Origin: Raillietiella orientalis
Taxonomy: Eukaryota
Assembly (NCBI GenBank): GCA_036172245.1
Contig: JAYWIR010000023.1
Coordinates: 2,356,001-2,420,000, forward strand
DNA: 64,000 bases
Direction of reading: 5' to 3'
Shown here piece by piece: positions 1,228 to 42,330 of this stretch (position 1 is its first letter; each line of letters starts with the position of its first letter). The position numbers and the translations under genes were made by a program. Under the pieces are notes generated by a model that saw only the letters and a list, made by a program, of their open reading frames with translations, ran no database searches and had not been told where the DNA came from.

Positions 1228-1251
1228 TTGTTGTTGTTGTTGTTGTTGTTG
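1228..1251. repeat. (TTG)8 microsatellite
   Basis: Read directly from the sequence. Confidence 0.95.
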
Positions 1252-10200: not shown

Positions 10201-11195
10201 CGGGGGATTCTGGAGCGGCACTTAACAAACAAATAAATGCGTGAGATGCGTGCCTATGCATGACAGACAGTTCCTCCCCGAAGGAACGGTCCCATGGAAA
10301 CCATAATTCCAAGTTTTAAGTGTGATCATTTCATTCGCAATCACTTTAGAACTTAAGTTTCCTTCTCCACTCCGGTTTTTGCCGACTCTTTCAGGACACA
10401 TTCGCTAAAAAAAGCTCTTTGCATTTCTTAAAAAAGAATTGCTTCCATCTACGTTTCTTTTTTTTTTAAAACTCCTCATTCAAGATAATGCTTTCCTTAT
10501 TGCGTTTCATCCTGTAAGGAATCAGAACTGCCACTGATACTGCTCGTGCAGAGTGTGTTGAGCATAACAGCCGACCTATTCCCTTTCCGTTACGTTTTTC
10601 ATGCGTAGGGCAGAATCCTGTTGTGACACACAAATGTGTAGATTCAAGGTGCATCTTTTCTCCTTTTTTTCTTCTTCTTGGCTTTCTAGAGGTGAAAACA
10701 AATAACATGCAGATTGTTCGTCTTTGATTCTTTGAATCTGATGTCAAGATGGCAGCTTTCACACCTCCACTTCGCTCAGCACAGAGGAATATCAGGCTGA
10801 AGGCGCGATGGATATAATCAGTCAACCATCTGATGAAGCTTCTCGGGGACCCGCCGAACTTCCATCTCATGAAGATTTGCGTGCAAAAAGAAAAGATCTG
10901 TTGGGAACACGAACTTTCGCACTTGTTCCTGCTTCCGAATCGATGACACCAGTACAACTCCTTACAGCTTCCGAGTGTCGGAAAACTGTCCGTTTTCTTC
11001 TGCTACCCCCACTGTGCTTTCTAGACAGTGGAACAGGCACAGCTATCTAGTTTGTTTCCGTGGTATTCGGTTTGCAACTCGATACATCTGAAAGCTTCAC
11101 CAATACGAGACACTCAGGTGACATCCGCGTTCTTCAGTTAGTACGAGAGAAGTCTTGTGTCCGGAAAGCAATGCAACTTTTTTCCCCTGTTTCAG

Positions 11196-11376
11196 TGCCG
11201 ATGGAGACTACGTTGTGACCACCATGACCAAAGCGATTCTACACTACACTGGAGTGGTTAGATGGAAGCCACCTGCAGTATTCAAGTCCTCATGTGAGAT
11301 GAACGTGGAATTCTTTCCATTTGATGAGCAGATGTGCTTTATGAAATTCGGCTCCTGGTCGTACGATGGCCTCATG
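11196..11376 (+). CDS. nAChRalpha1: nAChR gene 1 exon with loop E, Cys-loop ([15 protein letters not shown]) and loop B (WSYDG)
   Basis: tttcag|T GCC GAT...CTC ATG|gtatga; 181 nt; phase matches the previous exon (AA+T = Asn); C-x13-C Cys-loop. Confidence 0.95.
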
Positions 11377-12479
11377 GTATGATTCACGCACAAACGTGGT
11401 CCTTGCTATCCAGGTGGCGCATTGGCGTCAGATACTAACCTTCCGTTTCACGCCTTTTAAGATCATGTGCTGCTGCAAGCATCCTCTCATCAGTTTTCCA
11501 CGGAATTTCTCTCCGTTGAAATCTAATGAGATCGGTCGTTACTTTTGAGACATTTCACGTGAAATTTCTGGGCATTTGGGGGGGGAGGAGGCAAGCAAGT
11601 CGCTTCGGTTCGTTTCATCTGTTCCCCAAGTGTGTGTTCCTGCTACTCAAAAAGTTTGCATCATCACGAGGACTTATGTGAAGGTGCTTCCGGCAGAAAG
11701 TGGCAATCAGTGAAAAGACTGCAGAAACGTGCATCATCTGGGATGATTCAAGCGTGCTCGGAAAATAGAAAGGAAAGCCAGGAGAGTTGAAAGGAACACA
11801 CGCGACCGAGTTGTGTCGCGATGACGTTAATAAATAAGCTGAATTGGGCTGGTATGGTGACATGGTCTTTCGCGCACTTCGTGACAAACAAAGGTTGGGA
11901 CTTTCGGGACAAACAAAAGGATCGGGAAGACCTAGCAAATAAGGGTCACGGAAACGCTCGTCAATGCTGCTCAGACAAGTTACGTAAGCAAAGACGTAGT
12001 GATGCTTACGAGAGCGAAGTGCACGTACGAACCAATCCAAAGTCTAATCCTACGTTGCTGCAAGAATACTGCATCTCTGATGAAAAAAAAAAATGAATCC
12101 CCGATGCTTCCTTTCGGTTCGATGTTTAGTAAGCACAGAGTATTACTGAGTAGGGGAGCAAGTGGCAAGGACCCAAATCCCAGTTCCTCTATTGAAGTTT
12201 ATTCGGGAACGCGGAGCCACCACCACCGACGAGCCGAGTGAAATCCATAAGCAAAAGCGTTTGGAGAAATAAGTACATATCTTACTATAATGGATGGTAC
12301 ACGGCTACAAATGGTCTCATGAGCCAAATATACTGTGCATCGGCGTCTCTTCCCATAGGATAGGATAGGAAATATGGCGGTATTGTTTGTGGATATCAGG
12401 AAAGAACGAGGAAAACAGGAACAGAAGATCGTGTAGAACAGAAGCGCACATGTTTTCTGCCCTCACCTATTTCCTGTGC

Positions 12480-14200
12480 TTCGGCACTCCATCCTGGTAT
12501 TTTTTTTTTTCATGAGAGTTGCCTACGGGAGCGCGCGCGCGTTCTGTTTCGGTTGCGTATCCTTTTCTTGCTATTTTCTCTCTCCCTGCAAACTACATTT
12601 GCGAATCGAGAAGCTTCTGGAAAACTGCAGACTCGCTGAGGATCCGGCAGACTTCATTTTCCACTTTCCATCTGAGCCGGGTGACGGCAACGGTGTTTTC
12701 TCGATTCAAGTCCCTGGAGTAGGAAAACCAGGGGGAAAGGAGGAGGAGGAAGAGGATGATAGAGTTCGAAATTCCATGAGCATAACTGCGAAAAAGGAGC
12801 CAACTGTTTGGGTGGCTTCGTCCAGGAAGCGACGACGAGTTTCCAGACGAGATGACAGGATCGGTGAGTGGAATTGGACTCTGCTCACAAAATCACCGGA
12901 ATCCAATCACGGAAAAATCATCAGGTTGTCACAGTGGGTGGCAAAGGTTTTGGCAATAGGAGAGGACCGAAAACAGGGCAAGCGGGCACAGAGATGGACA
13001 GTGGCTCGAAACGGACCAAACGAGTCGAAGACTGAGCCGGAATTCAGTCTTGGTCAAACGGTACCGTCATCAGAGATGGGGCAGCAGCCAACAACTCCTT
13101 TCCCTAGCCGCCCATTCGTTCACAGCCAACAGATGAACCATTCTTCCACGCGGCGGTCCCGATTCACGATAGTCGATCCGAGTTACGGCATCAACCAGTC
13201 GTTTGCCATGGTTTTCCAGGGAAGAAAGCTTTCCATTAAGAAATCCGCATCTGCCGGCAATACATCTTCCTCCGCAAGCAAGCCTCTTTATCAGGTTGTT
13301 GGTGTCTCTTCGCACCGATCACGTGAGGAACAGAGAACGAAGAGGAGATAAATAATGAAGCACTGGATGTGGCGCAGTGAGCTTTCCTAAGCCACAGTTG
13401 CAGAGCGTACATGAAGCCTTTTGCTGTTAGCGCCGCATTAGCATTCCTCCGCCGTGCAAACATCTCCATCCTCTCAAAAAAGAGTGTCCTTATTTTCTTC
13501 ATGGAGACGGAGGCGATAAAATCGTGGGAAAAAATTCTCGACTGGAACTTCCTTCGACTCCCTCTTTCTCTTCGGAAATCTTCTCGCCAACTTTGTCGAC
13601 TACCAGAGGAAGCACCGTGCGTCTTTCTAGTGACCTGGGGAGTGCCAGACATTGGTCAGATTCGCGCTCAGGGAATCCGGGACTCTCTCCTGGAAAAAAC
13701 AGCCCTTGATCCCTGGAACGTTCCAAAAGCGAATCCAGGCAATCAAGAGTCGGAAGGTGCCGCGTTTCGAAAGAAGCGTCCTCATCCTTTCTCTCAAAAA
13801 GCGAGCAATCTGTCAAGTTTCCCTTCCGCAATGTTTCCGAAGGCACGGCCTCTCGCTGTGGCAGACGCCCTCCCACAGCCGCTCTTCCAGCCCTTTCTCT
13901 CTCGCCTCCTTGAGAACGGGGTGGAAGGAGGCCTTTCCGTTTTCTCACTCTGCTGCTGCTGCTGCACGGAGGCTTGAGTGTTGACAAACGCAAACTCCGG
14001 ACTCGACCTGGGCGAAGCCCAGGGCACGTCACCACTGCTCCGTTGTCAGGAGCAGAGATGCGAGGCATCTCGAAAACGCTCACCTTCAGTGGGCAATCGT
14101 CCGTGGAGAACTGCCGTTCGCTTGCCAGACTCAAGAGCAGGTTATTCCGGAATAGATGGCCTTCTCGAAACGAGGCTGAAGGTTTCTCTGACCTCTGAAC
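12480..14200 (-). mobile_element. Probable highly decayed LINE (ORF1-like C-terminus followed by endonuclease-like remnant)
   Basis: Minus-strand RIFSHDF...ARRRNANAALTAKGFMYAL resembles the L1-type ORF1 C-terminus; SGDF downstream resembles the APE GDFN motif; many frame breaks. Boundaries approximate. Confidence 0.35.
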
Positions 14201-15092
14201 CTAGTCACATCCCCTTTTCCCGCTTGGATCCACGAAAGAACTTCAAAACAGCAACAGCAACAGGATTAGGATCGAACGCCATCGTGATCGAGGATGAAAA
14301 ACGGCGGTCGAATGTTTACGATCCTGGATTTTCCTTGGAAAGGGGGGGGCGCGGTGGAAGCGCACTCTGTGAGTTGAAAAGATGGACCCAAGCGAACTTG
14401 CTAAGTGCCTCTTCTGCCCGGATAGGTACCAGAGCCTGCAAGAACAGATCTGTTTGTCGTGCTGCTACTTTTTTCCTTTTACGAGAAATTTCTTGAAGAC
14501 TTGCATAGAGGCTCTGTCTTCATCTGTTTGGAATCCGGTAGTTCACATCTGGATGCCATCTGTGGCGGTAACCCGCTGATTTCTGACGTTCCAGCAGGAA
14601 TCAGTTCAAAAGATTTTCGCCAGACAGCCCCCGAAAGTTGCCCTTGGGTTCCGTTTATTTTATTTTATTTTTTTTCCTTTATTTTCTCCAGAGGATTTCC
14701 CGTGGTTCTCGTGAGGTTCAGCAGGCTGAGCCCTTTCCTGGTATCATCTTCATGTTATCCTCCCTCTCATACAAGGAAAAGTCTTCGCGGTTTTACTGAT
14801 CACTTGATTCTGAGAAATATGCGGTCTCTCTCTCTCTCTCTCTTTTTTTTTTTTACAAGATAAGAAAAGATGGCTGCACACGGGTTTCCCCACCGTCTCT
14901 AGCGACGGAGGCAGTCTTCGTCCCTACCAACTATTTCCGACTATAGCTCTCAGGATAAAGGAGAACCATTGCGTGAAGCAAAGATTTAAGAAACCTACCA
15001 GGAATTCACTATCTCGTCGAACGAGAATGCGACTGGCGTGATCTCGAGATTTCCTCCCGGAAGAGTTACGAACACAATTCTGTATCTTCCAG

Positions 15093-15959
15093 GTGGATCT
15101 GATGCATCTGTACCAAGAACCAAACTCCAGTGTGGTGAGCGTTGGCATAGACCTTCAAGATTTCTACCTCTCCGTCGAGTGGGACGTGATGAACGCAACC
15201 GCCCAGCGCTTCGAGAAGTTTTACCCTTGCTGCGAAGAGCCCTTCCCAGACATTAAGTTCAATCTGACCCTGAGGCGCAAGACCTTATTCTACACGATGA
15301 ATCTGATTGCGCCCTGCGTCGGCATCACCTTGCTGTCCGTGCTCGTGTTCTACCTGCCCGCCGACTCGGGCGAGAAGATCTCCCTGTCCATTTCCGTGCT
15401 TGTTTCCCTCAACGTCTTCTTCCTCCTGCTCATCGAAATTATCCCGGCCACGTCCATCACGATGTCCCTGCTAGGGAGATACTTGCTGTTTACCATGGTG
15501 CTTGTCACCTGCTCGTCCATGTGCACCATAGCGGTGCTCAACTTCAACTTCCGTTCGCCCAGTACGCATTGCATGGCATCCTGGGTGCGCACGGTGTTCA
15601 TTGATTTTCTCCCAAAGTTTCTAATGCTGAAGAAACCCAAGCAGGATGACAGCGATTCTGAGAACGAAGGATCGGAAATGCAGAGGGAACAAGATCCTCA
15701 TCTGGAGTGCCTGTTCCAGAAGCGCTCTAGCTGGGGTAGCAGCGCTCAGGCTAGCCGTTACGATTCAGGGCAATTCGACTCCCGTTTCGCTTACAGCACG
15801 GAGGACGAAGAAGTCCTAGAAGACGAAATTCCCAAGCAGTTGCCGAATCCTCTAACGTTTTCGACTGAACTCTCTACGAATTCCCCAGAACTAGACAGAG
15901 CTATCCTGGGAATTCACTTTATCACTCAGCACATTCAGAACGAAAATCGGTTTTCCACG
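15093..15959 (+). CDS. nAChRalpha1: nAChR gene 1 large exon: loop F insertion, loop C with vicinal cysteines (YPCC), TM1-TM3 and intracellular loop
   Basis: ttccag|GTG GAT...TCC ACG|gtaagg; 867 nt in frame; [10 protein letters not shown] defines an alpha subunit; [17 protein letters not shown] and [11 protein letters not shown] motifs. Confidence 0.95.
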
Positions 15960-17636
15960 GTAAGGTCACAAAGTGCTGAACAGCCTCCTCATGGGATACT
16001 GAATCCTTCCACAAGTTTTTTCTCTAACCATCTGCCGTCTAGGCACACTCTTCACTCTCCAAATGAAGGAGAGGTTAACTATTTCGGAAAGCAAAAGAGT
16101 CCTTCTAAGACTTTCGATTTCGCGACCGAAACCTCTATTTTGTTTCTTTTTTTAATACAAAATCCGCATGCCTTTATCGGTGGGATGACTGAAGGACACC
16201 TGTAGGCGTTCCGACTGTAGTGTGAGAGCAAAGAGGCAACAGCCAACAACTTTTGAACCCGAGGTTGGTGTCGTGCCTCTAGACTTCTCCTGAGATGTGG
16301 TCTGCTGTGGCTGAATGGCCCACAACATCGGAATTCGTGCTGCCCTAAATGGGTGGCAATGTTCCGCAAGCTAGAGCAATCCGTCGGGAAGAAGCGCTGC
16401 TTGCGAATTGGAGACCGGAATTTCGGGAACGGGCCGTGGCACAGACACACACCAGCCACCCACATGCTCGTTACTGAATTCAATGACGACGATGAGTTTG
16501 CGGAAATCTTTTTGCGGTCGCTCGCCACCTTACCTCGCCGTGAACGGACTTTTTTTTTACCAACTGTCATGTCTTTGGATCTGCTGACCATAGTGCCAAG
16601 TGTAACCATATAGCATTCGCGTGACCCAAGTTCCGGAGTGTTTCACGGGACAGGAGCCCACAGTGGACACTTTTCGGAACTGCTGAAGCCTTCCTTGCGA
16701 GAACTTCAGTGGTTTCGAAAAGTACTAAGCAGCTGGCGATGTCTCTTGCCGATCGCATTGGGCTACAAAGAAACAACTGAGGCAGTGATGGAAAATTGCC
16801 GTCAGGAATGTCATGTCATGAATTCCACTTGGTATTTCATCACGATGCTAAGCCAGCATCATGATGCCACTTGCGCGTAGCTGCAGCAACTACGGTAAAA
16901 CTTGACAGATAGTCGCGCCTTCACGTTCCTTCATTGAATGTTTTCACGGTGGCCATTGTCACGAAAGTGTGAATGACTGAGTGGTCGCTTGAAAACTGAC
17001 GAAAGTTCACCGGAAACCATGGAGAAGCATGTAGAACACAGAACACACAAGTATATTTGCCATTCTCATTCTTGAAAAGATAACCCTTTAGTACAGAAGA
17101 CCGCTTCTCAGGTTTTGATGACGGTGAAGACACGTTTCCAAGATATTCCGGCATCTCCATTTTGCAGATACGTTTAGATAAAGGAGGCTGCACACTGGAT
17201 CGTAGTACTCACGCCTCCACCCACTTATGAGCGTCTGAAGTTTGGGAGGGTTTTCACTTTGCTGCGATCTCCGTTGATAGGCAAAGAAAAACAAGCCGAG
17301 CGATATGCTGAATCTTCGGTGGAATTCATGTTACCAGAAGCGTTCCATGCCCTTCTTTGTGAAGGTGTTTGCATTCGTGTCGCAGTCAAGAAATGCCTTC
17401 TTGACTGCGACAAACCCACATTTGGTCCTCCCCCTCACAGTGGAAGGCATTTCCACTGTGAGAGGAAAGTAATTTGTTTCAAGGAGAAAACGCGATTTCT
17501 CCTGCCAATCTCGGTCTCGAAGATGGAAGCTACAGCTGGGATTTTGTTGTCGAATAAGTCCGGTGGAGAAACCGTTCCTCTTACTGAGGAGTTTTGCAGG
17601 AGGACGAGACTGCCGTCACGCGTCCCTCAGAGTATC

Positions 17637-17706
17637 GATCTGCGAAATTCCCGTGAATAAACACTGCACAGGATCTGCGAAATTCCCGTAAATAAACACC
17701 CACGAG
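17637..17706. repeat. Two-copy 35-bp tandem duplication (gatctgcgaaattcccgt.aataaacac...)
   Basis: Read directly from the sequence; copies start at 17637 and 17672. Confidence 0.85.
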
Positions 17707-17822
17707 GTCCAGAAACTAGCACGAATCCTTTGGGTCGAGGGAACTCGAGTCTTTTGGGTTATTCGCGCAACACACAAATCCAGATCGGGCATCCGGTGGA
17801 GTGTTTTGGTGTAGTTTGCAGA

Positions 17823-17844
17823 ACACACACACACACACACACAC
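17823..17844. repeat. (AC)11 microsatellite
   Basis: Read directly from the sequence. Confidence 0.95.
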
Positions 17845-20648
17845 GCAAAGCCAGCGCTTCCGCAATTCGGTGCACTCATTGGAGGAGCACTTCATCGCGA
17901 GTTACATTCGCATTCATCCGTTCCGTAGAAGAGCAAGAACGTCTCTCCCGTGTTTGCTCAAGCGAGCTGCTTTAGTTCTTATCCGCTCGAAGTACAGTGT
18001 AACTTCACAGTTCTCCATCTTCGTACTTTTCGGATTGGATTAATTTCGGATTTCATTCTAAATTGTGATTCACTGATATCAAGGAAGGAAACTTTCAAAG
18101 TAATGGGATGGTCCTAAGGTTTCCACTCCATTTAACCGAAGGTGCAGTTCTTAGGCATTCCAGTTTTCAGTTTGGTAATTCGAATTTCGCTTTGACTTTT
18201 TTACCTGGTCCATTAAGTCGTGGATGCTCCTTTCTTTGATCCAGTGACCCATTCCATCGCCACATGAATGGTATGTGCACTAATCTTAAACGTACTTGCT
18301 GGATGAATGAAAATCAGCATGTAATCGCTTATCGTCTACCCCTTCGTGTTTTTCCTTCTATTCTTCTTGGCGTTTGAATTCAGGTCTGCTTTTCTGATTA
18401 TAGGGAACGAGAGAGCATGCAGCCATTTTTGCTTTGCACGCTTTATCAGATTTGTTTCTCAGTGCTCGTTGCTTCAGCTTGTACATAAGGGTACACAAAT
18501 GAAGGACGGAAATGGCTCTACTTAGGAATGTTTGCTTTTTCAAAGAGATGGAACCCGAAGATACCAGGAATGCATACACAAACAAGATGCAAAACCAGGA
18601 TGACAATGAGCTTATCAAGGCTGAAGTTTTTTAGACAAGAGGGAAGACGAGCTGCTCCTAAAGTGACCAGCATGTGTACAAGCTTCTATGCTCTACGGGA
18701 AAATCAAGGAACTCAAAATGTGCAATTGGAAGAGCTGGAGGCGTGATGTACAGACAAACCGGAAAAAAAAAAATAAATAACGATGCTAACAGATGCTTCC
18801 AAGTATCTTACGCTGACACGAGCACAATATTGCCTTCATGCCATATTTTGTGTTTCTTCAGTGCAGATGATGCCGTGTTTTGCATGAGTTGCAAACGAAT
18901 GGAAATCGCTCAGCAGACACACTGCAGCAAGCAAAAAATAAAAGAGAATGGAACAAAGGCGAGAAGGTACAAGAAGATCGAATAGATGCTCCGCGGAGTA
19001 ATGTAACCGAAAATCCGATGATTTCTTCGAGGTCCTATGAAGGAAAATCGGATCGCTGAAGTGCTGCGTGTTCTATGAAAAGCTTGAAGAATCCTCAGCA
19101 CGGTCCCTGGTCCCTCAAACGAAGACAGCAGCATCATGCAGTAGTTTGAGTTTGCGCCTTGCAGATTAAAAATTTGTGTTTTTTTGCTTTCGAAAAACAC
19201 GATTTCGCGACCCAGATGAATGTTACCTGACCTACCGACGGTCGTAGATCTCTTTGAAGACATGGAAGTGTGTGTCCTAAGAGAGCATGATCAAAAAACT
19301 AAGGTGTCTGAGTGCACAGTGTCTGAGTACACGAAGCAGTGCAAAATCCTAAAAAATATCTATATTCAATTCCGAAACAATTTTCTGGATACTAATTAAA
19401 TGATCTGCATGCTACACACAAGATGTGCTGCCTTTCCTTTTTATCTATCTTGTACCAATGTGTCTGTGTGCGCGCGTTTTTTCATTTCTTAATCTGTTAA
19501 CTGCTGTGCTTTCTGAATGTCCTTATATTGTGTCCTAATGTCACTTATCGTGTGCGAAGCATCATGAGTGATAATAGTCTTTGTTACATGTGCAAATAGT
19601 GTATGTGCAAATGTACCATCTGATAACGCGTGCAATTAGAGTCAAGTCGTCTTCCATGTCTTCATGGACGACGCAAAAGAAATGCAGCGTCCATGATACT
19701 CTCAGGGGCTTCCCTAAGAAAAGACTTACAAATCAAGACTTTACTCCACCATCTGCCACGTCCATGTGACATTTTTACTTTTAATTTTCTTGTCCTCATG
19801 TGTTGAATCCATGGGTCTGCTTCTTTGGTTGGCATCATATAGATGGTTGGTTGGAATACTCTCGTGGGTTTTTATAACTCCACTTGGTTGTTACTACCCC
19901 CGTCATCAATCTCAGATGGAATCCGCTCACAGAGACGTTTCTAGTCAAAAATTCCGTTTTGGCCAGCAGCACATTTCACGTGCGTTCCAGCAGCGTCGAA
20001 AATATTTTGTCCCATGTCATCGGAGACTCCGTTCTCCTTTGAGACCTTGGCAGCTGCTTTGCTGCCTTCGTATATCACAACACATCCAAAATCCTGATGC
20101 GTGCATAATATGCGGCATTAGGAGCTGTGCCAAATGATTATGCAGCATCTGTGCTATGCTAAATCTTTAACAAGATCAAATCAGGAAGGTGTTGGCACAT
20201 TTGTTGTGAATTTCAAGTCACAGTGGCGCTCCGTAAGCCAAAAAAGGAAAAAACAACAACCACAACCACCTCAGGTTCCGTGTTGTGAGAAGCAGGCTTT
20301 GAAAGATTCCTACGTCTCAGTCCGAAGTTTCACTGCAGCAAAAATGGCAGACGCAATCTCCAGGCCAAGTGGAGGCCAAGTTCCTTTTCGGACACGCGTT
20401 TTAGAACCATGTAGCTATCAAGTTGATTGCCGATTTTGTAGCTCCGGAACAGAGGTGTGCACCGAGCGCTATTTGGCAGAGAAATTTGCACACCTTTCAC
20501 ATTTGCTCCCCTGCCGAAGTGGGTGGTGCCTCAGTCAGGGATATCCTTCATCTTTTCCAGTCCCAAGCAAATACTTCTTTATGAAATGCTTTAAGGGGAA
20601 ACTAAGCAACCGTATAAGGATGCTAACAGAACTGTCTTGTGCTTTCAG

Positions 20649-20843
20649 ATAGAGGAAGATTGGAAGTATGTTGCAATGGTTCTAGATCGCCTTTTCTTGT
20701 GGATTTTCGCCTTGGCGTGTGTCGTTGGCACTGCCAGTGTCATACTGGAAGCTCCAACTCTGTGGGATAAAAGGAGGCCCATTGATGTTCAAATGTCGAA
20801 ATTTGCGCAAAGGCGGTTCAACAGAAATCCAACGGTGCTTTGA
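20649..20843 (+). CDS. nAChRalpha1: nAChR gene 1 terminal exon, TM4 ([20 protein letters not shown]...) to stop
   Basis: tttcag|ATA GAG GAA GAT TGG; canonical [18 protein letters not shown] at 20841-20843. Confidence 0.95.
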
Positions 20844-21417: not shown

Positions 21418-21423
21418 TTTATT
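21418..21423 (-). promoter_or_regulatory. Candidate polyadenylation signal of TERT
   Basis: TTTATT on + (AATAAA on -) about 37 nt past the TERT stop codon. Confidence 0.55.
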
Positions 21424-21459: not shown

Positions 21460-21937
21460 TTAAGTGTACATTAAGAGGAAAGGTGCTGGTATGCTTCTGC
21501 TTATAGATCTGAAAAGTACGTGCCTTCTTTGCACACTGATCCTGCGTTTCGAAGATATCACCAGATGCTTTAATCCTTTCGTCATTTTCCCATATGTGGC
21601 TTTGTGAGCAGCTAATTTTCTGTACCAAGCCGAATATGCCAACAAGCGCATTTCCTCCGTTGTGAAACACAGTTTCAAAGAGTAATTCTTGGAGTGATAC
21701 TTCACGCGATTGATTATGTAGTTTACATTGTCCATGGCTACATAAAGGAGAAACCCCGAATTGAGATGCAAAGGAGCAGTCAGCACGTTTTTCGCGAGAC
21801 TGTGGAAGCGAAATGCAGCCATGAGAGAGAACTCGAAGAAGTTGCGCGAGATGACTGCTTCGCTATTGAAGGAAGGATCGAAAAATATGGGATTGAGCCT
21901 GACGTTAGCCACTGTTCGCATCTTCTTTAGCAAAAAC
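21460..21937 (-). CDS. TERT: TERT coding exon 3: C-terminal extension (thumb)
   Basis: Acceptor tgctttag|G; FLLKKMRTVANVRLNPIFFDPSFNS...AAFRFHS resembles the TERT CTE (P..FD...NS and A.RFH motifs); TAA at 21462-21460. Confidence 0.85.
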
Positions 21938-21998
21938 CTAAAGCAATTCAGGCAAAAGAAGCAGAAATTAGACACAATCTCTTCAGGCATTCTCATAC

Positions 21999-22244
21999 AT
22001 GCCAGGATCACTACGCAACTCCGTGCTCAGGGTTCTTATCACAGACTGACCTTCATAAATGCCATAGTCTACCGAAACAGACAAGTCTTCCAGGCTGATT
22101 TTGAAACCAAAAAAGGAAGCCGATTCTGCTGAGGAACAACAGCTTCCAGGCTGGCAAAGAGAACTCTTCACATTAGTCCTCGTCTTGTCAGAGTTGATAT
22201 AGCAATTGAAATCTTCAAAGCCGCCCTCCATTCTTTGCAGAAAT
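21999..22244 (-). CDS. TERT: TERT coding exon 2: RT motifs D and E (FLQRMEGGFEDFNCYINSDKT; SFFGFKI)
   Basis: Acceptor tctttcag|A completes the phase-2 Arg codon from exon 1. Donor AT|gtatga opens a 61-nt intron (21998-21938, ctaat branch-like site, ttag end) that restores the frame into exon 3. Confidence 0.88.
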
Positions 22245-25200
22245 CTGAAAGACAAGAGATAATGAATTCAATCAATAGGTTTCCAAGGTGCTAAAAACGC
22301 TGCACGTGCATAAGAGAACGGAATACTCGTGCGAGAAGTCTTACTGAGGTTATTTGAGGTGAATAGAAATGTTTGCTCATTTTCGCCGCCCAGGACTGAG
22401 AGGTTTCCGAAAGAATCTTTTATCACAAAACCGATGCTTTCCTCACGATCGATCCAACGTGCAGAAATAATTTCCGGATCATCGTAGTTTCTCTCTCTCT
22501 CTCTCTCTCGAACAGATAACAACGAACGGGGATCAGTGGCTGAGAGAACCATCCGCGGTCACCATTTGCAACATCTCAAATCGGCGATCTTTCCGAAGAA
22601 CTTTTGATTTTAAATCCACTCCTGTACGTCCTTTGAATACATTTTTCCCTCCTGAGGAAGAGGAAAAGGACATGAAAGTGTGCTCTCGCTTTAGCAGTCA
22701 ACTCGGATGAGTTCTAGTCCTACGTGAATCTCGTCTCTGTTGTTTGAGAGTAATGCTTTTATTCGTACACGAAAAAAGGTGAATTTATTTCTCTTCCGTT
22801 TTTCTAATGCTTTGGAAAAAAAATGCTTATCACGAGAAGAGAATCTTATCTTTATTTCCAGAGCAGAAATTAATTTCACCCGATACATCGGCCATCGTAA
22901 TTATCCATATGTCATGAACTATCTTCATAGCAGCTTAGGAAATGAAACCCTTTGATTATGAGGTTTTTTGTTGAACTCCCGCATAAAAGCGCAGATGTAT
23001 ATGTGCACAGACACTATTGCGCACAAATGTGCAGATGACACGTATGTATTAGCCAAAAGCTCAGACCCAAATATATTACAAGCATAATTAGGCTGATTTC
23101 ACAGGCCGTTTAGATCATTCGTATCTCTTGGTGATCGCGCGGCATCCAACGCAAGTTGAGCAGGTTATCAAAAGGCTCTCAAAAGCTCAAAAATTCTTAT
23201 GCTATGAATCCTGACGCCTCCAAGTTGATTCGAACTCGTACAGGAAAATTCCAAATTTATTGGATGAGTTATTGCCTCTTCTTTCAGGAGCGACACCCAC
23301 GGTCACACTGGGCGGAAGGCAGGATCGGAGGCAAGCACTTATGTGCCAAGGGATTATCCACGTAACGAAATCACCTCCCATTAGAAACGGACGTGGAACA
23401 CCCTTCGCTTTGATATGCAGTCCCTCTTTCCCCATGCGGGATTCACAGACTCCTGAGAATAACCATCTTTTTGATTTTGAATCCGTCCCCCCTGAATCGG
23501 ATCCTCAAGGTGGGAGACCTCCAACAGAAATGGATTTGTCATCGGATGCTTTTTTGTTTTTTTGTTTTCTTAACGCGTAGCAGAAGTCAGCTCCACTCAA
23601 CCATAATATGTATCATGTGCGTATCTCATTAACATATTAGCAGATGACATAAGAGCGAGCTAGCAAGAATCATTACTTTTTCCGTCCTTTCATTTATTAG
23701 CTGCTTTCTGCCCATGCTCTGGTGAGCCGCCCTTCTGCCGCTTGAACAGGGACACGTTTGTGGTTAGGAGATAAAAGGCATGAGAAGACGGAGCTATCGG
23801 AAAGGAAGATTTCCAAAGCCTGCGAGACTTGATATTTTCCATCTTTCTCGTCCTCTTTAGTAAGTGAAAACAGCATTCGGGACGAAGAAAGGAAAAACGG
23901 GTCTTCTATGCCGATTAATGTGCAGGGTCCCTTCAAAATTTTGGTCCAGATCGAAAACGTTCCGTAGCTTTCCGTCGATTCCAAGCACCTTAGTGGTGAT
24001 AAATGATCACAGTTCTTGTGTTTCCAAATCACTACAAACATCTGCTTTATATTTTTTTCTTTTTTTTCCAACAAATTGTTTAAACGGCAGCACATTCAAT
24101 ATTACGACAGATTAAATTAAGACGACCGAAAGTGATTGGCTTTTTCTTCGAATGAAATCAATTTTCCCATCAACCGCTGCACCTTTCACTCCGTTAAAAA
24201 CTTCAAGCTGATCAAAATTATACGCCAATTTTAATTTGTCATTCACAACCTGGGTTCTGTGAGCCAGGAATAGTCGAGGGTCCCATTGCATCACTCTTAG
24301 GAGAACTTCACTCATGTGTTACGAGACTTAAATGGAACAGCCATATGCGTGACGACTCGAGCAGGAACTTTGCTGCACAAGGCGAATGTAATTCGAAAAG
24401 AACTAACGTTTAATCAGTTCAAGCAGATAATTGGTGATTATTCACCGATTTCCAGTTGTTTCTCATCAAACCCTCGGAATCATGAAGTCCTGAAGCGTAA
24501 ACGGAGCCGAGAAACCATGACTTTTCAAATCCGTCACGCAGGCAGCCATTGCATAACTGCTGTAAATCTCACAGCACTACGATGGAAGCTGAGAACAAGA
24601 TTGCATTTCATCCATGATCATCATCATCATCTTTACTAGCCATCTGAAGCGGCGCTTGCACACGGATGTTCACCGTACGTTTCTGAACAGTGCCTGCATG
24701 TGCGATGCTTAATACCGCCGTACACAGAACTCCTGAACTTTATGGGTAGAGAAAAAAATCTCTCCGGAATTACTTCCAACCGGAAGGAAGGAAGCATACA
24801 CGGATGAGGATCACCACTGCGATTTGTCTGCTTGAGCAAACTCAACCTGCAAGTTTGTTTCGCACAATTCCACCGAGTTGATCTTCCCGTTGGTGGAGGC
24901 TTTTTTCTATCAGCAAAGAGATTCGGCAGCTTCGCTTCAAGAGCAGCGAACGGATAAGGGGTAAGAGAAAACCTTTCCCTTTCTCTTGGAACAGTCGAGA
25001 GAAGGAACAACACGGATCGTCAACTCTACTGATCGAGAGACGTGCTCCGGAAGCATCTCGCAGATGAAGGACGTCTATGTGGCGACCACCAAACACTTAC
25101 CAGTTTTATCAAACTCTTCCATGTGTTTTTGTTTCATTCTGTATTCGATCTGGAGGTGCTCTTAAAAGCCAACCTCGAATCTGAACATTCGCAATAACCG

Positions 25201-27421
25201 TTCCCAAATCCCAAGAACACATACTCGGATGCACACACATAAACTATAGGGAAAACAAGTCCGTGCTATACATGCAGTTTGTTTACATGGAAAAAGGTGT
25301 ACCTTAATCAGTAATGCACAATGGCAGGAGCAAGAAAGTACATCGATGTTTTAAAATTCCGAGAAGAGAGCGTCGAATTTCACGGATTTGAACAGATCTT
25401 TTAAATCGAACCCGCGGAACCAAAAACATAAAGCGGTCGCTCCATAAGAGGAAAGTAAAGATTCCTCTTAAAGAGGGAAGGTTGATGATTGTACATTAAG
25501 GGAATCGTTTCTGAAAGTGTTCCCCGTTGTCCCAGAGAGCAAATGAGTCCACGTGAGCAACACTTGCAGAGGCTCTTTGTTTCGAACTGTTGCACAGAGT
25601 AAGCGGCCAATGATTAGTGGAACACTATCTACGGCTGTTTGGAGAGTCCTGCGATTAATGTAATTTCATCTGCTCAGGAACTGCAGCGATGGAGGGTATC
25701 ACTGCTTCACTTTTGACGAAGCTTGAAAACATTTCTACAAATCTATTTTACCTCATGACAGATTTTTTTTCATTTTTTGACACTTGGAAGAATCCTTTCC
25801 TGTCGTTGTGTCAGAGGTGTTCAAGATAAAACGTATTCTCGGACATTCTTAGATTCCAAGTTTTGGAACGTGAGTGAAAGAACCAAGGCATTTAGGTAAA
25901 TCAAACAGGAATTAAAAATCAAACGTCAATTAATGCTGAAGCTGGAAACTTTATTCTGCTAGAAATGTAACTACATATGGAAGCCCACGTACAAGAACTA
26001 ACAGGTATGTTGATCACAAAACGCGAAATTAAAAGAACAAATTAGGGAACGAAGTATTTAAACTTCGTTCCCTAATTTGTTCTTTTACTTTCAAAAAAAA
26101 AAAAAAACATGCACTGGAAATCACATTTCTTCTAACTTTGTATGGAAGGACACAAATTTCCTGGTTCCCGTGTCCGCGTACACCGTAGAAAAATGGCATG
26201 ACTTGGCACAATTCAGAGTCACGTGTTCGAAGAAGCTACAAGGCGTGCGTGGTAATTAAATTGTGCAAAAACCCACGACGAAAATGACACGAGCAATCAA
26301 CTGCTTGGCAGACACAAAGATGACCTGCGAAGATAAAATCACTTGGAAAGATAACACGGCACCAAGACAGAAGGCAGACAGTTTTAGGCAGAGAACCTCC
26401 CCGGTTACACTCTTAATCAAAAGATCAATATGGGGTTGTGTGCTCGCTCTCTGGATTTAAAAGTTACTGAAGCTGTGGTTCTGTACGTATGTAGAACAAG
26501 GCTAAATCTCGCATCCAGATTCCTTGTCTAGCCGGTTCTTGATATTTTAGCTCAAAAATGCATAGATACACATACTTGTGTGTGTGCGTGCATGATGAAG
26601 TGTTATACATGTAGCTCTACGTTATACATGTATGTTTGCAAACAGTTGCTCCTAAAATGTATTGGCACATCCATGAGAAATGGAAAGCATTGTAACGAGG
26701 CGAAAGAACAGATAAGTTCCCGGAAATATCGTCTTCGACATATTAAAAAAAGGGGGGGGGGGGGAAGTTTCATTCTTTGAACTTCCAGAGACAGAAAATG
26801 ATCCAAAAGGATGGTTCAAAACCCTGGAAAGCAAAGGCTAATGCTGAGCAAGTGTCCGGCACAAAATCGAGGAATGCATGAACGGATCGAAATTTTCGTG
26901 TTTTTTCTCGAATTGCTTCTCAAGTCCGTTCTCCGCTTTTCCTGATTCTCCAAAGCACACACCATCGGTCGATTTCAACTTTGGCTTACAAAACCGAACC
27001 GACAGTCCTTAAAGACCTCTCCCGCGAATATTCACAAGCCATCACAAATCGCTGACTGAGGCTGCTCCGGGACGATCTTCCCAGCATCTATAGTTTCCGG
27101 TACTCGTGAAAAGAGCTCTGTTTCAGTGACAGCGGTTTCCCCTGCTGAATCCGATTTTTCAACGGAGTCCAACGCACTCCAAGGGAACTTCCACTCGTAG
27201 ATCATGCCGTATTTCAGAGAAAGAGAGCGACGGATTCCATAGAAAAAGAAGGTGGGCCCGCATTTCGAGGTAAGGGTTCCGAGACGTACTTTGCCCGTCT
27301 TTCTAAGAAACGGTGTGGTGTCCATTTGCACCGTGCGTTGCGGGTCGAAACAACAGCGAATGATAGCACCTTGGCCGAAGAGGTCATCCACACAAAGTTA
27401 CCACCAATAACATCCTCCTAC

Positions 27422-29568
27422 CTGGAAGCTGCATCACAAGAAGAAGTAATCAACAAATAATCGTCTACGCTTCTTGTGAGAAAGTGCTCTTCGTTGTGAA
27501 AAAATTCGCTAAGGTAAAGCTGCCCCATGTATCCGTAGTAAATATTGCACAAGAACCCTGAAAGAGGATTTCCTTGCAGCAGTCCTTGCGTTATCAAATA
27601 GTTTTTGTTGCACAGAGTGGCGATCTGTCGCTTAAGCAGTCGTTCCAACCTTTCCAGTCCATCCGAAAGATCAAAAAATCTAGATTTTGTGAAATAGATG
27701 ATACAACCTTGGGGATGGCTCTTGGAGAAGGCAACCAGATCTTCCATGTAACTGTCGGAATTCTCGATAAGAAAGGTTGCAGTTTTAATCTTTGATGAAT
27801 TCGACGTTACGAAGGCATGCTCTCGGATTTCTACACGCGTTGCTTGGAACTTTCCGAAGTAGCTGCTTAAGATTTCTAGCAGCTTATCATGGGCGACGGA
27901 TCCGTAGGCGTCAAACAAATCTATCTTCACGTAGTAGAGTTTTCTGGGCAGCGAGATTTTTCCCACGTAAGCTTTGTACTTGTAATACAATAGGTTCTTC
28001 GAATGCACGGAAACAAGCTCTGGAAACTGCTTTTCAATGCACTTGAGTACAGTAGTAAGGTCCGAGATGACCGCACTTCGTGAAGACTGTCTTTTCACCT
28101 TTGTGATCGGCCTGACGCCGTTCTTCTTGGGGATGAACCTGAGAGTGTTGATCACAGCACGCTCGGAACTTACCAACTGCTGTGCAGCGTTTCTCGAGAT
28201 AAATTTCATCTTTCCCTTGAATATTTCCATGTTGATGGCAAGATCGGTTATAGCTTGCCATACATTTTTTTTGTAGTAAAGCACTTCATGCCTCAGGTGA
28301 CTAGTTTCAGTTACATAAAAGAACGATTTTACTGTGTCTAGAAAATACTTCTTTAGAACCCAAACAATAAATTTCGAAATAAGGAATTTTCTAAGTCTGT
28401 CATCCTGTAATGGTGATATCCATTTGCAGTCATGAACCCTAAATTTACTTATAGTCTGTGACAGGTCGATGATATCGTTTTTTCCAGAATAAAGAATTTT
28501 CTTGAGAACTCGCATGAGAATCTTTCTGTTGTGATTAGATCCAAGGAGTTCATTTGGTAACACTCTCCTTCCTATTATACCACAAAACTTGACGATTTGG
28601 GCTTTGTTGGAGTAAAGCTTTGCTAATCCTTTGATTCTGAGATTCAAACTCAATGAGTCTGTTGTCACCAATTCTCCACTGTGATCTTTTGATTCACAAA
28701 ATAAATTGCTGTAATGACGAGGGCAGCAACTGTTCAATATGTGCTGATAAGGCAGATTTCTATGAGCACAAATAAATTTTTGCAAAATAGGTTGCAAATT
28801 TTCCATTACATTGGATGCCATTTCATACCCAGAAATGGGTTCAGTCTCAGTTTTAAAAAGGTCAGCTATTAATGAAGCTTTTGTTGTAATTTTTAATGGA
28901 TTCATTACATGGGAACTTGGCCAATGCCCAAAAATTCCTCTGCTATACAATATATATTTTAAATGAATAACAGGATCAGTATAATGACTATAGTATCTTA
29001 AATAATTTTGCCATTGCATGGTAGAGAAGTCATCATTGTTTAATGTATTTGTGTATGAAAAGATTGATTCATCTTCACAAATGCTTCCACTGGCAACATG
29101 GGGTTCATTTCTTATGATGGGGGAAACATTACATATTGATTTACTGTATTTCAAAAGTCTGGACTTTATTTGTATCAGAGATTTTCTTTGCAGCAGATTA
29201 CTGCTAATAAAGTTTTTATGGATGTAATCCTTTACAACAATAGCAACAAATGCATTTTCAGCAATTTTCAGATATAAAGCACAGAAATTATAAATGAACA
29301 TTGTTGCAACATCTCCAAATAATTTTACAAAACTAATGTTTACTTTCGACAGAACATCATATGATTTCAGCACTGAATCTCTCTCATTATTCTTACTTGC
29401 CAAATGAAGGTAACGCTTCAGTTGTACAATGAATTTGTTATAATTAAGCTCAGTACATACAAAAATATTGTTGATCATTTGTTCGTTTTCCACGGATATT
29501 GATAATGCTTCAAATAACTCCTTCATACTTACAATTGTGGCATAATTTCTTGCAAGCATTTCCATCAT
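27422..29568 (-). CDS. TERT: TERT coding exon 1: TEN-like domain, linker, TRBD (CP, QFP, T motifs) and RT motifs 1, 2, A, B', C
   Basis: 715-codon open frame with CP (PYQHILNSCCP), QFP (QIVKF...LPNELLGSNHN), T motif (FFYVTE...LYYKKNVW), motif 1/2 (LRFIPKKNGVRPI), A (KIDLFDAYGSV), B' (GLLQGNPLSGFLCNIYY) and C (RSVDDYLLIT); donor AG|gtagga at 27421. Confidence 0.96.
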
Positions 29569-31085: not shown

Positions 31086-31920
31086 TTGTGTATTCGTGTG
31101 GAGTGTCGCCAGTGTCCAATGGCAACGATGCCTGAGAACACCGCGATGGAGATATTTATGGGAGAGGCAAGTTCCTCCCCCCAACCTACGGAGATGAAGG
31201 CAACCGCCCCCACGGAATCATCCCCGCCGACGGTGAGGACGTGGAGAGCCGTGACTGCAGCGCCATCAGCTGCAGCCATCCCCGAGCAGACAGCGTATAA
31301 GGCCACTAGCTATAAGTCATCCTTGATCTACAAGGTAAGTGGCCTTTTCGCTGGCAATACTGCACGTTCCTTTTCGAGAGAACTGCAGAGAATTAACGTC
31401 AGGGAGGAAGAGCTTGAAGGTTCCTCCATCCTTAGTGGAGGTCAGCGCGTAGAGATGACTTGCAAAGGTGCAAGTCTGGCCCAGCGCTTGCTGAATACCC
31501 GTATTACGGTGGAGGGCTGCAAGATCTTCCCTGTGACGGAGGACCGCTCCATAGTGGTCCACCTCACAGGAGTAACACTCCGCCTGCAAAAAACCGCAGT
31601 GCATGCCGAGTTGAACGAAAATTGTACTGCCACGCGCTATGGGCCAAACCCAGCGTTTTCGAGGGCTCTGGTAAGCTCTTCAGTTGGATGGCCGCAGCGC
31701 GCGTCACGGCACACGAAACGGTGGGCTTCTCCACAAACTGAGCATCGGTAACAAGATGTCGATGACCTGGGCAAGCCCAAGTACTGTGGTCGCCGTGATG
31801 CCACGGGGCACCTGAAAAAGCGGTGCCCCGATATCCAGTGCCACTTGTGTGCCGAGGAGGGCCACTTAAGAAGAACGTGCACCAAACGTGAAACCCCGGT
31901 TCCCCCTGAAGCGATAAATG
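31086..31920 (+). mobile_element. Decayed non-LTR retrotransposon ORF1/gag-like fragment with CCHC zinc knuckles
   Basis: GC-rich island in AT-rich DNA. A 221-aa ORF is followed by CGRRDATGHLKKRC (degenerate knuckle) and CHLCAEEGHLRRTC (intact CX2CX4HX4C) at 31785-31880. No ORF2 follows. Confidence 0.7.
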
Positions 31921-35715: not shown

Positions 35716-35901
35716 ATGCCGACGATCTTTTTATTAGTGCTTTTTCAACTAATAGGAAAGAAAGTTTTGACGAATCCAGACGTTAAAAGACTGTACGATG
35801 ACCTACTCAGCACCCACAACCGCTTGATACGGCCTGTCGAAAACTATTCTGAGACTTTGACTGTAAAAATCGGCCTCAAGCTCTCTCAGCTTCTAGAATT
35901 G
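35716..35901 (+). CDS. nAChRalpha2: nAChR gene 2 (alpha2-like), first coding exon: signal peptide plus [22 protein letters not shown]...[10 protein letters not shown]
   Basis: ATG, hydrophobic leader, [19 protein letters not shown] motif; donor TTG|gtaaga, phase 0. Confidence 0.9.
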
Positions 35902-38900
35902 GTAAGAGCATCTTACTGTGAACATTGCATTGGAAAAATCTTCGGTTTCTTGGGGAAAAAAGGGGTAAAAAAAAAAAAAAAAAAAATATGGAAAGGGGGA
36001 GACCAATCCATTCTATTGCTCAGTTTTCATTTTTATGAATCATTTGTTGAAGAGTATAGATCCGGTTTCCTTTTATTAATAAAGAGGAAAACAAAAGGCA
36101 GCTCAGATAGTCATGTTAAGCAACAGTGAAATACATTTCAAATGTTTGCTTTAAAGAGCTGGAATTCGCAGGTGCCCTCACTAGTGATTTCTTATCACAC
36201 GAGCGTTGCATTGGCCAGGCTGGTCGTCGGCGCGTCTCCAGCCGCTATTCGGTCGACGGCTCGCATCCGGAAGCTCGAGCAAACGTCACGGGTTCGTGGG
36301 CTGGGCTGGCAGCTCGTCTGGACATTCCTCACCCGTTGACGTCGACTCCACGGTCGCTCCCACCTGAAAACGCTCTCTTTTCCCTTGAACGTGGCCTCAT
36401 CGGGTTCATCTATGAAATCTGGTCCCATTCCTCTTCTTGGCGCGCTCCGCATGCCTGGTCCCGTTATGCTATAAGTTCGTTCTTTCGCCTCAGAAAGAGG
36501 GTGCCAGTCGAGAGCACGGGCTAGTGGACGCCTCATCCTAGACGACAAGCGAATGCATGCATCCTTTACCTCTCTTACCATCCTTACCTTTACCATCTTT
36601 GCCAATGGCTTGCTGTTTGTTGACATTTAGAGTCCACTTCTATTCTGCATGCATTGTCAACAACAGAAACTTCCATAAGCAACGCTTGGTGAACCTTTAG
36701 GCATGGCCCTACCTAGTCCGCCCGTAGGTCTTGGCCATCAACTCAATACCACAAATCAGTTTTTCTTTAACCCTTGATTGGCAAGCGAAAGTGGAAATCC
36801 CTTTTTATTTATCGATGAGCTCTTAAAACAATCGCTCAAGAGCTCCAAGATTCCAAAGAGCGGTATCCATTTCCTGTCTTGCAGGAGATGCACCCAGCTT
36901 TAGAATGTAGCTCGACTGCCACCGTGCACAATGCTTTCAGTTTGATATTTCGCTACCTCAGAGGGATGAAGTTTCTGACCTTGGAGGGAAATTCTAAGCA
37001 GCCTCTCTATAAGAACAATGCTCAGATCTACTACTCTCCAAGAGTTTTAACTGGGTCAGTGGCAACATTGCGCTGTGTTACAAAGGTCTCTAAGATCATT
37101 TCGAGCATCATCTGAGTATCGGGGAAATTCAACTCAAGGGTCACTATAGGCAGGTTTATGAGAATAGGATTTGTGTTTAGAGCGTAGCCAAGTGATAGAA
37201 CAGATGAAGACCATTACTCTCAATTGCATTGCAAAAGCTTAAAATAAATTGCTTGGTAGCTGAATAGGACCAGCACAGGGAAATTTTTTACTCAAAAATG
37301 AGCACTGATGTTTGAAATCTGAAGCAGGTGGTATTCTGTTCGCTGATCAACCGTAGAGGTTTTGCACCCTCATGCTTTCTCTTTCCTTCACCTGTCTGGT
37401 GCTAAAATTGTTTGTGGATTTCTTGAGGCACAAAAATAAGAAACGCAAGAAGTGGTTACTTCATTCAGAGAGACTTTGCACCAGCTTGGGACTAAAGGAA
37501 AACATCATGCACTGTGGAATGGAAATGCCCAAGAGAAGAATTCGAGTTCACTTGGAGATCAGCCATGCACAAACACAGTTTTATTCTTCCCTTATTAAAA
37601 AAAAAAAAAAAAAAAAAAAAAGTGCTCTTTTCGTGATAAAACATTTTCATCTTTTATTTTTCACTAGAATTCACTCTACAATGAAACGCACGTTATTTAG
37701 TAAGAATCTTCAGCATGGAAATAATCAACTAAGAGTGCGCAATGAAAAGAGACTGCTTATTCTGATGCACACAGTTCCCAAGATAAAGGAGGAAAGCAGG
37801 GCAAAGTAAAAAGAAAATGAAAATTAATTATAAATCCATTCTAAAAAATGCGAATTCTACCGTGCATCGATTCAGTGAACAGGGTATAGAGCTGAAGTGA
37901 TCTTTGGACTAATGGATACATGGTTTGCAATATTGCTGAAGTTTCTGCTACACAAAAAAAGGTCTTGAAAGCATTTCTTTCTAGCAATAGAGCAGAACTG
38001 TTGTTATTTTTCCTTTCTTCCACGTTTTTATGTAATCGCTTAGTGTCTCTCCGCTGACATGTAGACGGTTCAGTGTCTTTTGTTTCTTCTCTGCTGAAGG
38101 AAAAAATAGCAGGGCAGATGTGTCTCATATGGCCAAGTATCGCCGAGCTGTCGGGTAACACTTGTGATTTGATTTGTTGCTGTTTCTTTTATCCATGATC
38201 TGCCATTTCGTCTCCCAGCACGAGATTCAGTTAGTTTAGCAATATGAAACACAGTTTAGCAACCCGTGACGGCAGTTTCTCTTTGAACCGCGACTTCTTA
38301 TCAGGTGGGGATTTTTTTGCGACAGCGCATATCTGTGATCAGAGTCCCAAGTTTTCATCTTGCGAAGGGAAAAGCCATTCGCGGTTTCTTCTTGGGTGAA
38401 CTTATAATTCAAGCTGCCGATACTACAGACGCAACATTAAATAAGGGTGGAGGAATTTTCTTTCGGTTTCCCCTTCGAACGACATGTTACAGTCGTAAGC
38501 AAAAGCGGGAAGAATGCTGGACGCAGCTGAGTGTGCAGTGCCTCTCTGACTCATGCTGTACACGCTCCACGAAGAGAGCTTATTCCTCGCAGATCATATG
38601 AGCTGTTTGTACACGGCAACAAGAAGCAATGGTTAAGAGGAAGCTACTCAGAATAAAATGAGATTGCGTTTGGATGAAAACTTTTTTCCAGCCGAGTGTA
38701 CTCCTCGTCCCTCTTTTTACACCAGGAACCATTTGCAATGGATTTTTCTAGAAAGACAGCTTTCCGATTATGAGATTAGTCCACAGAGCTCGAGGTTGAG
38801 AACAGTTGCCTTCTTTCTTCAGCTTCAGTAACTCCTATCGAACTTTTAGTGAGTTTCGCCCCTTTAAATCAGGCTTCCTTTCAAGAGAGGAGAGTGGTCT

Positions 38901-42294: not shown

Positions 42295-42328
<34 letters not shown>

Positions 42329-42330
<2 letters not shown>

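Follow-up and report, generated by a model that had tools for sequence, protein, structure and literature searches.

A three-exon TERT gene between two nAChR genes of a likely pentastomid, with intron sites common to likely copepods

In this study, we analyzed a window of 64,000 nucleotides of genomic DNA in which a TERT gene lies between two nAChR genes. The evidence makes a strong case that this gene is the only detected TERT of a likely pentastomid and a predicted maker of TTAGG repeats, that its three exons likely go back to early pancrustaceans, and that it likely came to its present place by rearrangement at the DNA level.

Spliced at junctions predicted from sequence and homology (Table 1), the minus-strand gene yields a frame of 956 amino acids with one terminal stop and is presumably spliced and expressed in this form. 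As the first-pass annotation had claimed, the TERT is intact over ∼956 amino acids with all three catalytic aspartates—D550, D702 and D703 of the RT domain, invariant in a 42-sequence alignment—and its first 715 codons form one exon, the only two coding introns lying past motif C. Pfam profiles match the protein at Telomerase_RBD (PF12009, E 6e-29, amino acids 324-446), RVT_1 (E 2e-7) and TERT_C (PF21399, E 6e-7, above the cut-off), so that the TRBD, the RT domain and the C-terminal extension (thumb) are certainly present, whereas the TEN domain is borderline: amino acids 80-110 align with the TEN profile where such a domain would be expected, but equally high scores arose in 3 of 200 and 3 of 500 shuffles. 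The first match in the Atlas is a telomerase cluster at 0.82, which is a lead only. The TRBD and RT motifs, including the T motif, align with the human TERT chain 7qxa_A (E 1e-39), with D702/D703 at human D868/D869, whereas the Gln of the GQ motif is not kept. The protein would act in the manner of other TERTs: the RNA would be bound by the TRBD, and the RT domain would extend the 3' end of the chromosome by copying a short template rich in C, with TTAGG repeats like those at one contig end as the predicted product. The CpG observed/expected ratio is 0.23 in the first coding kilobase of TERT, a stretch picked after the data had been seen, against 0.88 in the whole window, a contrast that gene-body methylation of long standing would explain. 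An Rfam scan of the window at gathering scores gave no match.

Table 1. Positions of the TERT gene, its receptor neighbors and a repeat within the window
Feature	Position	Strand	Remarks
TERT exon 1 (coding part)	27422..29568	-	2147 nt; codons 1-715 + 2 nt; possible degenerate TEN-like aa 80-110, TRBD, RT motifs to C
TERT intron 1	22245..27421	-	5177 nt, GT-AG, phase 2 in R716; column and phase common to L031 and L035
TERT exon 2	21999..22244	-	246 nt; RT motifs D-E, start of thumb
TERT intron 2	21938..21998	-	61 nt, GT-AG, phase 2 in M798; column and phase common to L031 and L035
TERT exon 3 (coding part)	21460..21937	-	478 nt; C-terminal extension, stop; TERT_C
AATAAA, predicted poly(A) signal of TERT	21418..21423	-	37 nt past TERT stop
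nAChR alpha gene A, part inside window	1038..20843	+	first exon ∼20.6 kb before window; AATAAA 21103-21108
nAChR alpha gene B, part inside window	35716..59730	+	last exon ∼12.8 kb past window
Repeat fragment between TERT and gene B	31106..31789	.	67-73% like stretches at C17 start and near C13 end

The first-pass annotation had raised the prospect of another multi-exon TERT elsewhere in the genome; we found none, with one match each for PF12009 and for the RT region in the 210-Mb host genome when the best candidates were scored. As these searches score the best candidates only, a second TERT that is highly diverged and divided into many small pieces might escape them. At the protein level, a word-index search with the TERT returned 2 matches and phmmer 1,288, the best 150 of them at 22-35% identity. 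Two of 164 proteins (P0079 and P0087) end exactly at the arginine of intron 1; P0005 ends near it and was left out of this count, as it differs from its cluster mate in the way that a frameshift would.

Both introns recur in two (L031 and L035) of six related metagenome loci, where they match in phase and in alignment column. L031 (contig JAAUXU010005445.1) also has the same three-exon plan, with a first exon of 523 codons. Its two phase-2 introns, 61 and 64 nt long, lie at columns 1229 and 1319 of the alignment, exactly at the sites of the present TERT; the locus differs from the latter in its ∼28% identity, its shorter N-terminus and its intron 1, 61 nt long compared to 5.2 kb. The best named match of a neighboring gene is Tigriopus, and L031 is thus likely a copepod. 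It forms one clade (support 98/93), with the present TERT outside, together with L036 and L035; the latter, likely also a copepod locus, branches first and has extra introns. Neither intron is found in the other four loci: the introns of L036 are different ones, and L032-L034 are uninterrupted and could be either intronless genes or assembled transcripts. The basal pancrustacean split separates Oligostraca, including Pentastomida, from Altocrustacea, including Copepoda. The exon plan is thus older than this lineage, given that L031 and L035 carry the same two introns at identical column and phase; we consider it likely, judging by gene structure, that the three-exon layout was inherited from early Pancrustacea and does not stem from a recent cDNA that was only partly processed.

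It is very unlikely that the ancestral gene was instead intronless and that this lineage and the copepods each acquired both introns on their own. Such gains would require two exact coincidences, and the probability of sharing both introns with L031 by chance is 4e-7 for uniform sites, or 4e-4 if only 10% of the sites after motif C are usable. In all three genes, intron 1 does interrupt an arginine codon as AG/A, where parallel gain could occur, whereas the bases flanking intron 2 differ among the three junctions and hold no common motif, which speaks against parallel insertion into a proto-splice site. The absence of both introns from L036, nested among the copepod loci, would also fit independent gain, but since the first-branching L035 has both, loss in L036 explains this more simply. 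Thumb intron sites do vary among crustaceans, and TERT intron sites are labile here: the Daphnia-like ORFs, and one that is malacostracan-like, are interrupted elsewhere in the thumb.

Intron-poor crustacean TERT is already published, with one intron in Daphnia pulex and three in Parhyale hawaiensis according to the consulted part of Lai et al. 2017 (PMC5405514). The present gene resembles these in being intron-poor, in its very long first coding exon and in its TRBD-RT-CTE protein. Daphnia-cluster genomic ORFs run for up to 957 codons and then stop after motif C, and they differ in that the two intron sites described here are not seen in them. Branchiuran and copepod names (Argulus; Tigriopus, Lepeophtheirus, Eurytemora and Calanus) are absent from the searched non-FASTA material of 11 of the 18 supplement files of PMC5405514, and no pentastomid name turned up there either.

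Compared to human TERT, which has 15 introns, the present gene has two, and these align to human codons ∼882 and ∼968. We take the human leader to be 55 nt, which would put the introns flanking exon 11 in codons 885 and 948, and the introns described here would then be near but not at the human sites. Human exon 11 spans cDNA nt 2710-2898 in the consulted part of PMC3085100. The present gene also invites comparison with insects, where TERT is intronless in Lepidoptera and aphids in the consulted part of PMC5405514. The ancestral 5' introns have been lost here as in those TERTs and in the Bombyx and Tribolium genes, but the present gene keeps two introns common to a distant crustacean lineage. 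For Bombyx and Tribolium, retroposition has reportedly been proposed. On a much older time scale, the three-exon plan could be the Cambrian-age fossil of one retroposition, in which a fully processed TERT cDNA replaced the intron-rich gene in stem Pancrustacea (or arthropods) and two introns were then gained at nonhuman positions and kept in pentastomids and copepods. We regard this as rather unlikely; if true, that retrocopy would be the ancestor of every crustacean and insect TERT, and its origin could have fallen together with the change of telomerase RNA type in arthropods.

In agreement with the first-pass annotation, TERT lies on the strand opposite to two same-strand nAChR alpha genes and between them; it is intergenic, outside the receptor introns. 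Both receptors have the vicinal cysteines in loop C that define alpha subunits. The stop of gene A is 616 nt from the TERT stop, and gene B starts 6.1 kb from the TERT ATG. By their motifs, gene A is presumably alpha1-like and gene B presumably alpha2/alpha8-like. Vertebrate nAChR chains, the sole references used here, align with the exon of gene A only from residue 14-20, which would be compatible with a loop F insertion. The other nAChR subunit with a long transmembrane exon, on contig C24, lacks the vicinal cysteines and is, as we assume from its motifs, beta1-like. The pair recalls the insect cluster of alpha1, alpha2 and beta2(alpha8) outlined in Jones and Sattelle 2007 (PMC2064938, consulted in part) in that two same-strand paralogues, presumably of the loop-F-insertion type, stand close together; it differs in that TERT sits between the two and in that no third member of the alpha1/alpha2/alpha8 group was seen within the 204 kb read. 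The repeat fragment between TERT and gene B has no Pfam match and is likely a LINE ORF1 remnant.

That the nAChR-TERT-nAChR order goes back to the pancrustacean ancestor and was later lost in copepods and other groups seems quite improbable. The clustering of alpha1 and alpha2 is old in insects, at least in the accounts of Drosophila, Anopheles and Apis consulted in part, and the 3' end of TERT lies only ∼300 nt from the predicted poly(A) signal of gene A. However, the nAChR transmembrane exon has no match in L031 (19.5 kb), L035 (15.1 kb) or L036 (8.5 kb); among the ORFs listed, the neighbors of L031 (GRASP55, F-box/LRR and aldolase) and L035 (Vps55 and serpin) differ even from each other; and a literature search by title found no report of such synteny. 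The first-pass annotation had asked whether the same order and intron pattern are widespread and already described: both introns recur in L031 and L035 and intron-poor crustacean TERT is in print, but the order does not extend to the three loci. Since the copepod TERT loci have other neighbors, the position between receptors is probably a lineage-specific DNA rearrangement.

The relocation into a receptor cluster proposed in that annotation thus remains plausible, but the partly processed cDNA that it invoked as the vehicle is not supported, given the same introns in L031 and L035. We hold it to be highly improbable that the gene arose in this lineage by reverse transcription of a partly spliced TERT mRNA and insertion of the copy between the receptors, followed by loss of the multi-exon parent. 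The large intronless 5' part of the gene, the failure to find a second copy, the different neighbors in copepods and the many LINEs and snRNA-derived copies in the host genome would all suit such an event. But L031 has the same three exons with no nAChR nearby, so no event within this lineage is needed to account for the lack of 5' introns. Among the marks of a retrocopy, introns missing relative to related orthologues are not seen, as L031 has the same plan and the first exon of the Daphnia cluster is even longer, and neither is a multi-exon parent, the genome match being single. There is no genomic A-tract after the AATAAA of TERT, though an old one would have decayed. cDNA-mediated intron loss usually takes 3' introns first, the opposite of the pattern here.

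Contig C13 ends in a 1,094-bp (TTAGG)n array, with the G-strand running outward 5' to 3' and made up of 211 TTAGG, 9 TAGG and 1 TGG units; such an array stands at 1 of the 40 contig ends read. It leads us to reject a non-TTAGG telomere repeat. The first-pass annotation had envisaged a lineage without TTAGG, with an uncharacterized repeat and telomerase RNA; the array overturns the former. Telomerase RNA, known from few arthropods, was sought by the type-3-promoter method of PMC9841428: the upstream regions of U6, U6atac and MRP have only a CATATA-like box in common, without a usable PSE, and the best five U2 matches are interrupted copies.

The host is a pancrustacean, probably a pentastomid (tongue worm, a parasitic crustacean), as judged from mitochondrial data. 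The top 3 of 120 COI matches listed are Armillifer and Linguatula, at 72-73% compared to 68-71% for the others, and a COI tree of 17 rows, with insects as sole outgroups and a long query branch, places the host as sister to Armillifer/Linguatula (100/100). The mitochondrial order, read by eye, is cox1-trnL2-cox2-trnD-atp8 without trnK, identical to that of Argulus japonicus; this order is of the ichthyostracan type and does not tell Branchiura from Pentastomida. COI and gene order together rule out a spider host and place the genome in Pancrustacea, not in the spider-like lineage that had been entertained.

A literature search by title found no pentastomid telomere study, and the TERT and telomere repeat described here are apparently the first from a pentastomid. 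The current view of how telomerase works is unchanged by these results, and TERT's place between the receptor genes has no evident functional meaning. The novelty, which is modest, would lie in two introns common to both sides of the basal pancrustacean split, whose exact match makes them a usable marker for timing the ancestral intron loss of TERT. Our data extend TERT and the TTAGG repeat to the pentastomid lineage and suggest that a reduced endoparasitic crustacean likely keeps an ordinary telomerase.

The telomerase reverse transcriptase (TERT) gene of Raillietiella orientalis has a structure, predicted from sequence and homology, of three coding exons, read from the minus strand and dominated by the first. 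Its two introns, of 5,177 and 61 nt, are both GT-AG and phase 2, and fall in codons R716 and M798; an AATAAA signal lies 37 nt downstream of the stop. The spliced protein matches the Pfam domains Telomerase_RBD (E 6e-29), RVT_1 (E 2e-7), and TERT_C (E 6e-7) and aligns to human TERT (E 1e-39), whose D868/D869 correspond to D702/D703 here; together with D550 these catalytic aspartates are invariant in an alignment of 42 sequences. The first-pass annotation had described the gene correctly, with its intact frame, three aspartates, and flanking plus-strand nicotinic acetylcholine receptor (nAChR) genes, here A and B. A TEN-like segment at residues 80 to 110 has the expected location, but its score is not clear of shuffles; its first Atlas hit, at 0.82, is a telomerase cluster. 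TEN profile scores of 12 to 26 bits were seen in the TERTs of Daphnia, Periplaneta, Ixodes, and Lycorma (P0313, P0020, P0098, and P0289), and the GQ motif is stated to be absent in arthropods (PMC5405514).

Coordinates of TERT and the adjoining receptor genes in the window
Feature	Position	Strand	Remarks
TERT coding exons	29568-27422, 22244-21999, 21937-21460	minus	spliced 2,871 nt, 956 aa, single terminal stop
Open frame	27418-29607	minus	729 codons
nAChR gene A, end	20843	plus	vicinal cysteines
nAChR gene B, start	35716	plus	vicinal cysteines

Genome searches of 210 Mb in 491 contigs, in which the best candidates alone were scored, gave a single PF12009 match and a single reverse transcriptase-region match, both being this TERT. 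CpG observed/expected in its first coding kilobase (window 28569-29568) is 0.23, and is lower in just 2 of 204 fixed 1-kb bins, this stretch having been picked after the profile was seen. Such depletion would be consistent with a gene body that has long been methylated and transcribed. It is sharp, with low GC3 over the first 300 codons and normal CpG immediately upstream and downstream; a comparable stretch lies at ∼2,442 to 2,452 kb of contig C23.

The first-pass annotation had inferred that TERT was relocated, perhaps by way of a partly processed cDNA. Two of 164 homologues, both called as ORFs on metagenome contigs, terminate precisely at the arginine that ends exon 1, and a metagenome scan reduced 533 pattern matches to six related loci (L031 to L036). 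The first exon of L031 runs to 523 codons and its two introns measure 61 and 64 nt; L035 carries both introns and additional ones. When the genes are jointly aligned, R. orientalis, L031, and L035 all have phase 2 introns in columns 1229 and 1319. For L031, the probability that both sites coincide by chance is 4e-7 if sites are uniform and 4e-4 with the strictest null model applied; for L035, which has more introns, it is 3e-5 to 0.02. L036 has neither intron and others instead, and the TERTs of L032 to L034, which may be transcripts or intronless genes, are uninterrupted. L031, L035, L036, and P0291 form a clade (support 98/93) with R. orientalis outside, and the GRASP55 gene beside the L031 TERT has its best named hit in Tigriopus. 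The basal pancrustacean split separates Oligostraca, including Pentastomida, from Altocrustacea, including copepods (PMC6684935). Because the introns are shared with copepod-like loci across this split, both introns and the intronless 5′ two-thirds of the gene were likely inherited from the ancestor at that split, and the identical sites in L031 and L035 speak for an inherited crustacean layout in place of the lineage-specific cDNA. Daphnia-cluster TERT ORFs reach 957 codons and break at another thumb site, so the giant first exon is general while individual intron sites come and go. According to Lai et al. (PMC5405514), crustacean TERTs have few introns, one in Daphnia pulex and three in Parhyale, and those of aphids and Lepidoptera are intronless.

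On human TERT, the two introns align to about codons 882 and 968. Assuming a human leader of 55 nt, we place the exon 11 borders in codons 885 and 948, so that the introns fall near but not at them. Exon 11 comprises cDNA nucleotides 2710 to 2898 (PMC3085100), and Lai et al. counted crustacean introns as shared with human (PMC5405514). If the offsets hold, an intronless TERT stage in early arthropods, followed by intron gains, is possible.

The remaining exons of both receptor genes were located within 204 kb around the window. By its motifs, gene A looks alpha1-like and gene B alpha2/alpha8-like; likewise, a subunit on contig C24 (1949887-1961800), which has loop B to TM3 within a single long exon, looks beta1-like. 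The predicted poly(A) signals of gene A and TERT converge, with ∼310 nt between them (window 21103-21423). The alpha1, alpha2, and beta2/alpha8 genes are clustered in Drosophila and Anopheles, and alpha1-alpha2 in Apis; the cluster is broken in Tribolium (PMC2064938). The TERT of L031 adjoins GRASP55, F-box/LRR, and aldolase genes and that of L035 Vps55 and serpin genes, the nAChR transmembrane exon had no match at any of the six related loci (1.6 to 19.5 kb per locus), and a literature search on nAChR-TERT synteny gave no title on such a gene order. Evidently, the neighbors of TERT change often. Since its introns are likely ancestral, the gene most simply moved as DNA; it may have entered the receptor pair, or the pair may have been rearranged with TERT in place.

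The annotation had also considered the case of a host lineage without canonical TTAGG telomeres, as reported for spiders; against this stand COX1 and mitochondrial gene order, which point to a probable pentastomid and not a spider, and a terminal TTAGG array. The best COX1 match in the assembly is contig C282. With 8,000 candidates scored, the top 3 of the 120 hits listed are pentastomids, at 72 to 73% identity versus 68 to 71% for the others, and 23 columns are common to R. orientalis and all three but occur in <3% of the other 117 hits. A tree with 16 hits places it as sister to Armillifer and Linguatula (100/100), although with insect outgroups alone and a long query branch, attraction is possible. 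The order read by eye, cox1-trnL2-cox2-trnD-atp8 without trnK, is identical in Argulus (PMC10999652, Table 1). Decayed copies of C282 on C33 (83%) and C50 (94%) indicate that the mitochondrial contig belongs with the nuclear assembly. The host is almost certainly ichthyostracan, and a pentastomid outside Porocephalida is highly probable. On C282 (L030:1746-2310), trnL2 past cox1 is followed by ∼500 nt unassigned and a second partial trnL2 ahead of cox2, and nad3 follows a tRNA block, not trnG directly. The genome has 54 COX1 matches, most of them broken, on C33, C34, C50, C220, C285, and others, which points to abundant nuclear copies of mitochondrial DNA.

Six tandem TTAGG units matched the genome 172 times in forward and once in reverse orientation (control pattern, 0), with 99 of the 100 listed places at the end of contig C13. 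There, a 1,094-bp array (211 TTAGG, 9 TAGG, and 1 TGG) reaches the last base with its G-strand outward, the only array at the 40 ends of contigs C1 to C20. This array and the genome-wide pattern make it very likely that the telomere repeat is the usual arthropod TTAGG. C13 also has a repeat in common with the stretch adjoining TERT; an interstitial tract of ∼7 units lies on C11 (L002:1490-1535).

Arthropod telomerase RNAs have been described from Hymenoptera and Lepidoptera/Trichoptera (PMC9841428, PMC12133305). An attempt to define an snRNA promoter in the Raillietiella genome yielded none. The five best of 46 listed U2 matches (L090 to L094, on C3, C34, C30, and C389) lack the U2 5′ end and share a start base after an A-rich tail, and upstream frames of four resemble the end of a restriction-like-endonuclease LINE; they look like insertions of a U2-targeting retrotransposon, presumably of the Utopia type. 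U6 copies are dispersed at 48 places; only two of eight inspected (L037 to L044) combine an intact end with a TATA-like box, and the rest look like retrocopies. U6atac has 14 matches.

The intact catalytic subunit, for which no second copy was found, and the terminal array suggest a mechanism in which TERT, if spliced as modeled and expressed, would bind a telomerase RNA and add TTAGG. As we found no pentastomid telomere studies in the open-licence literature, the lineage record and the shared introns appear new; the gene itself is real but an ordinary TERT, its crustacean layout likely inherited and the telomere repeat of its host very likely TTAGG.
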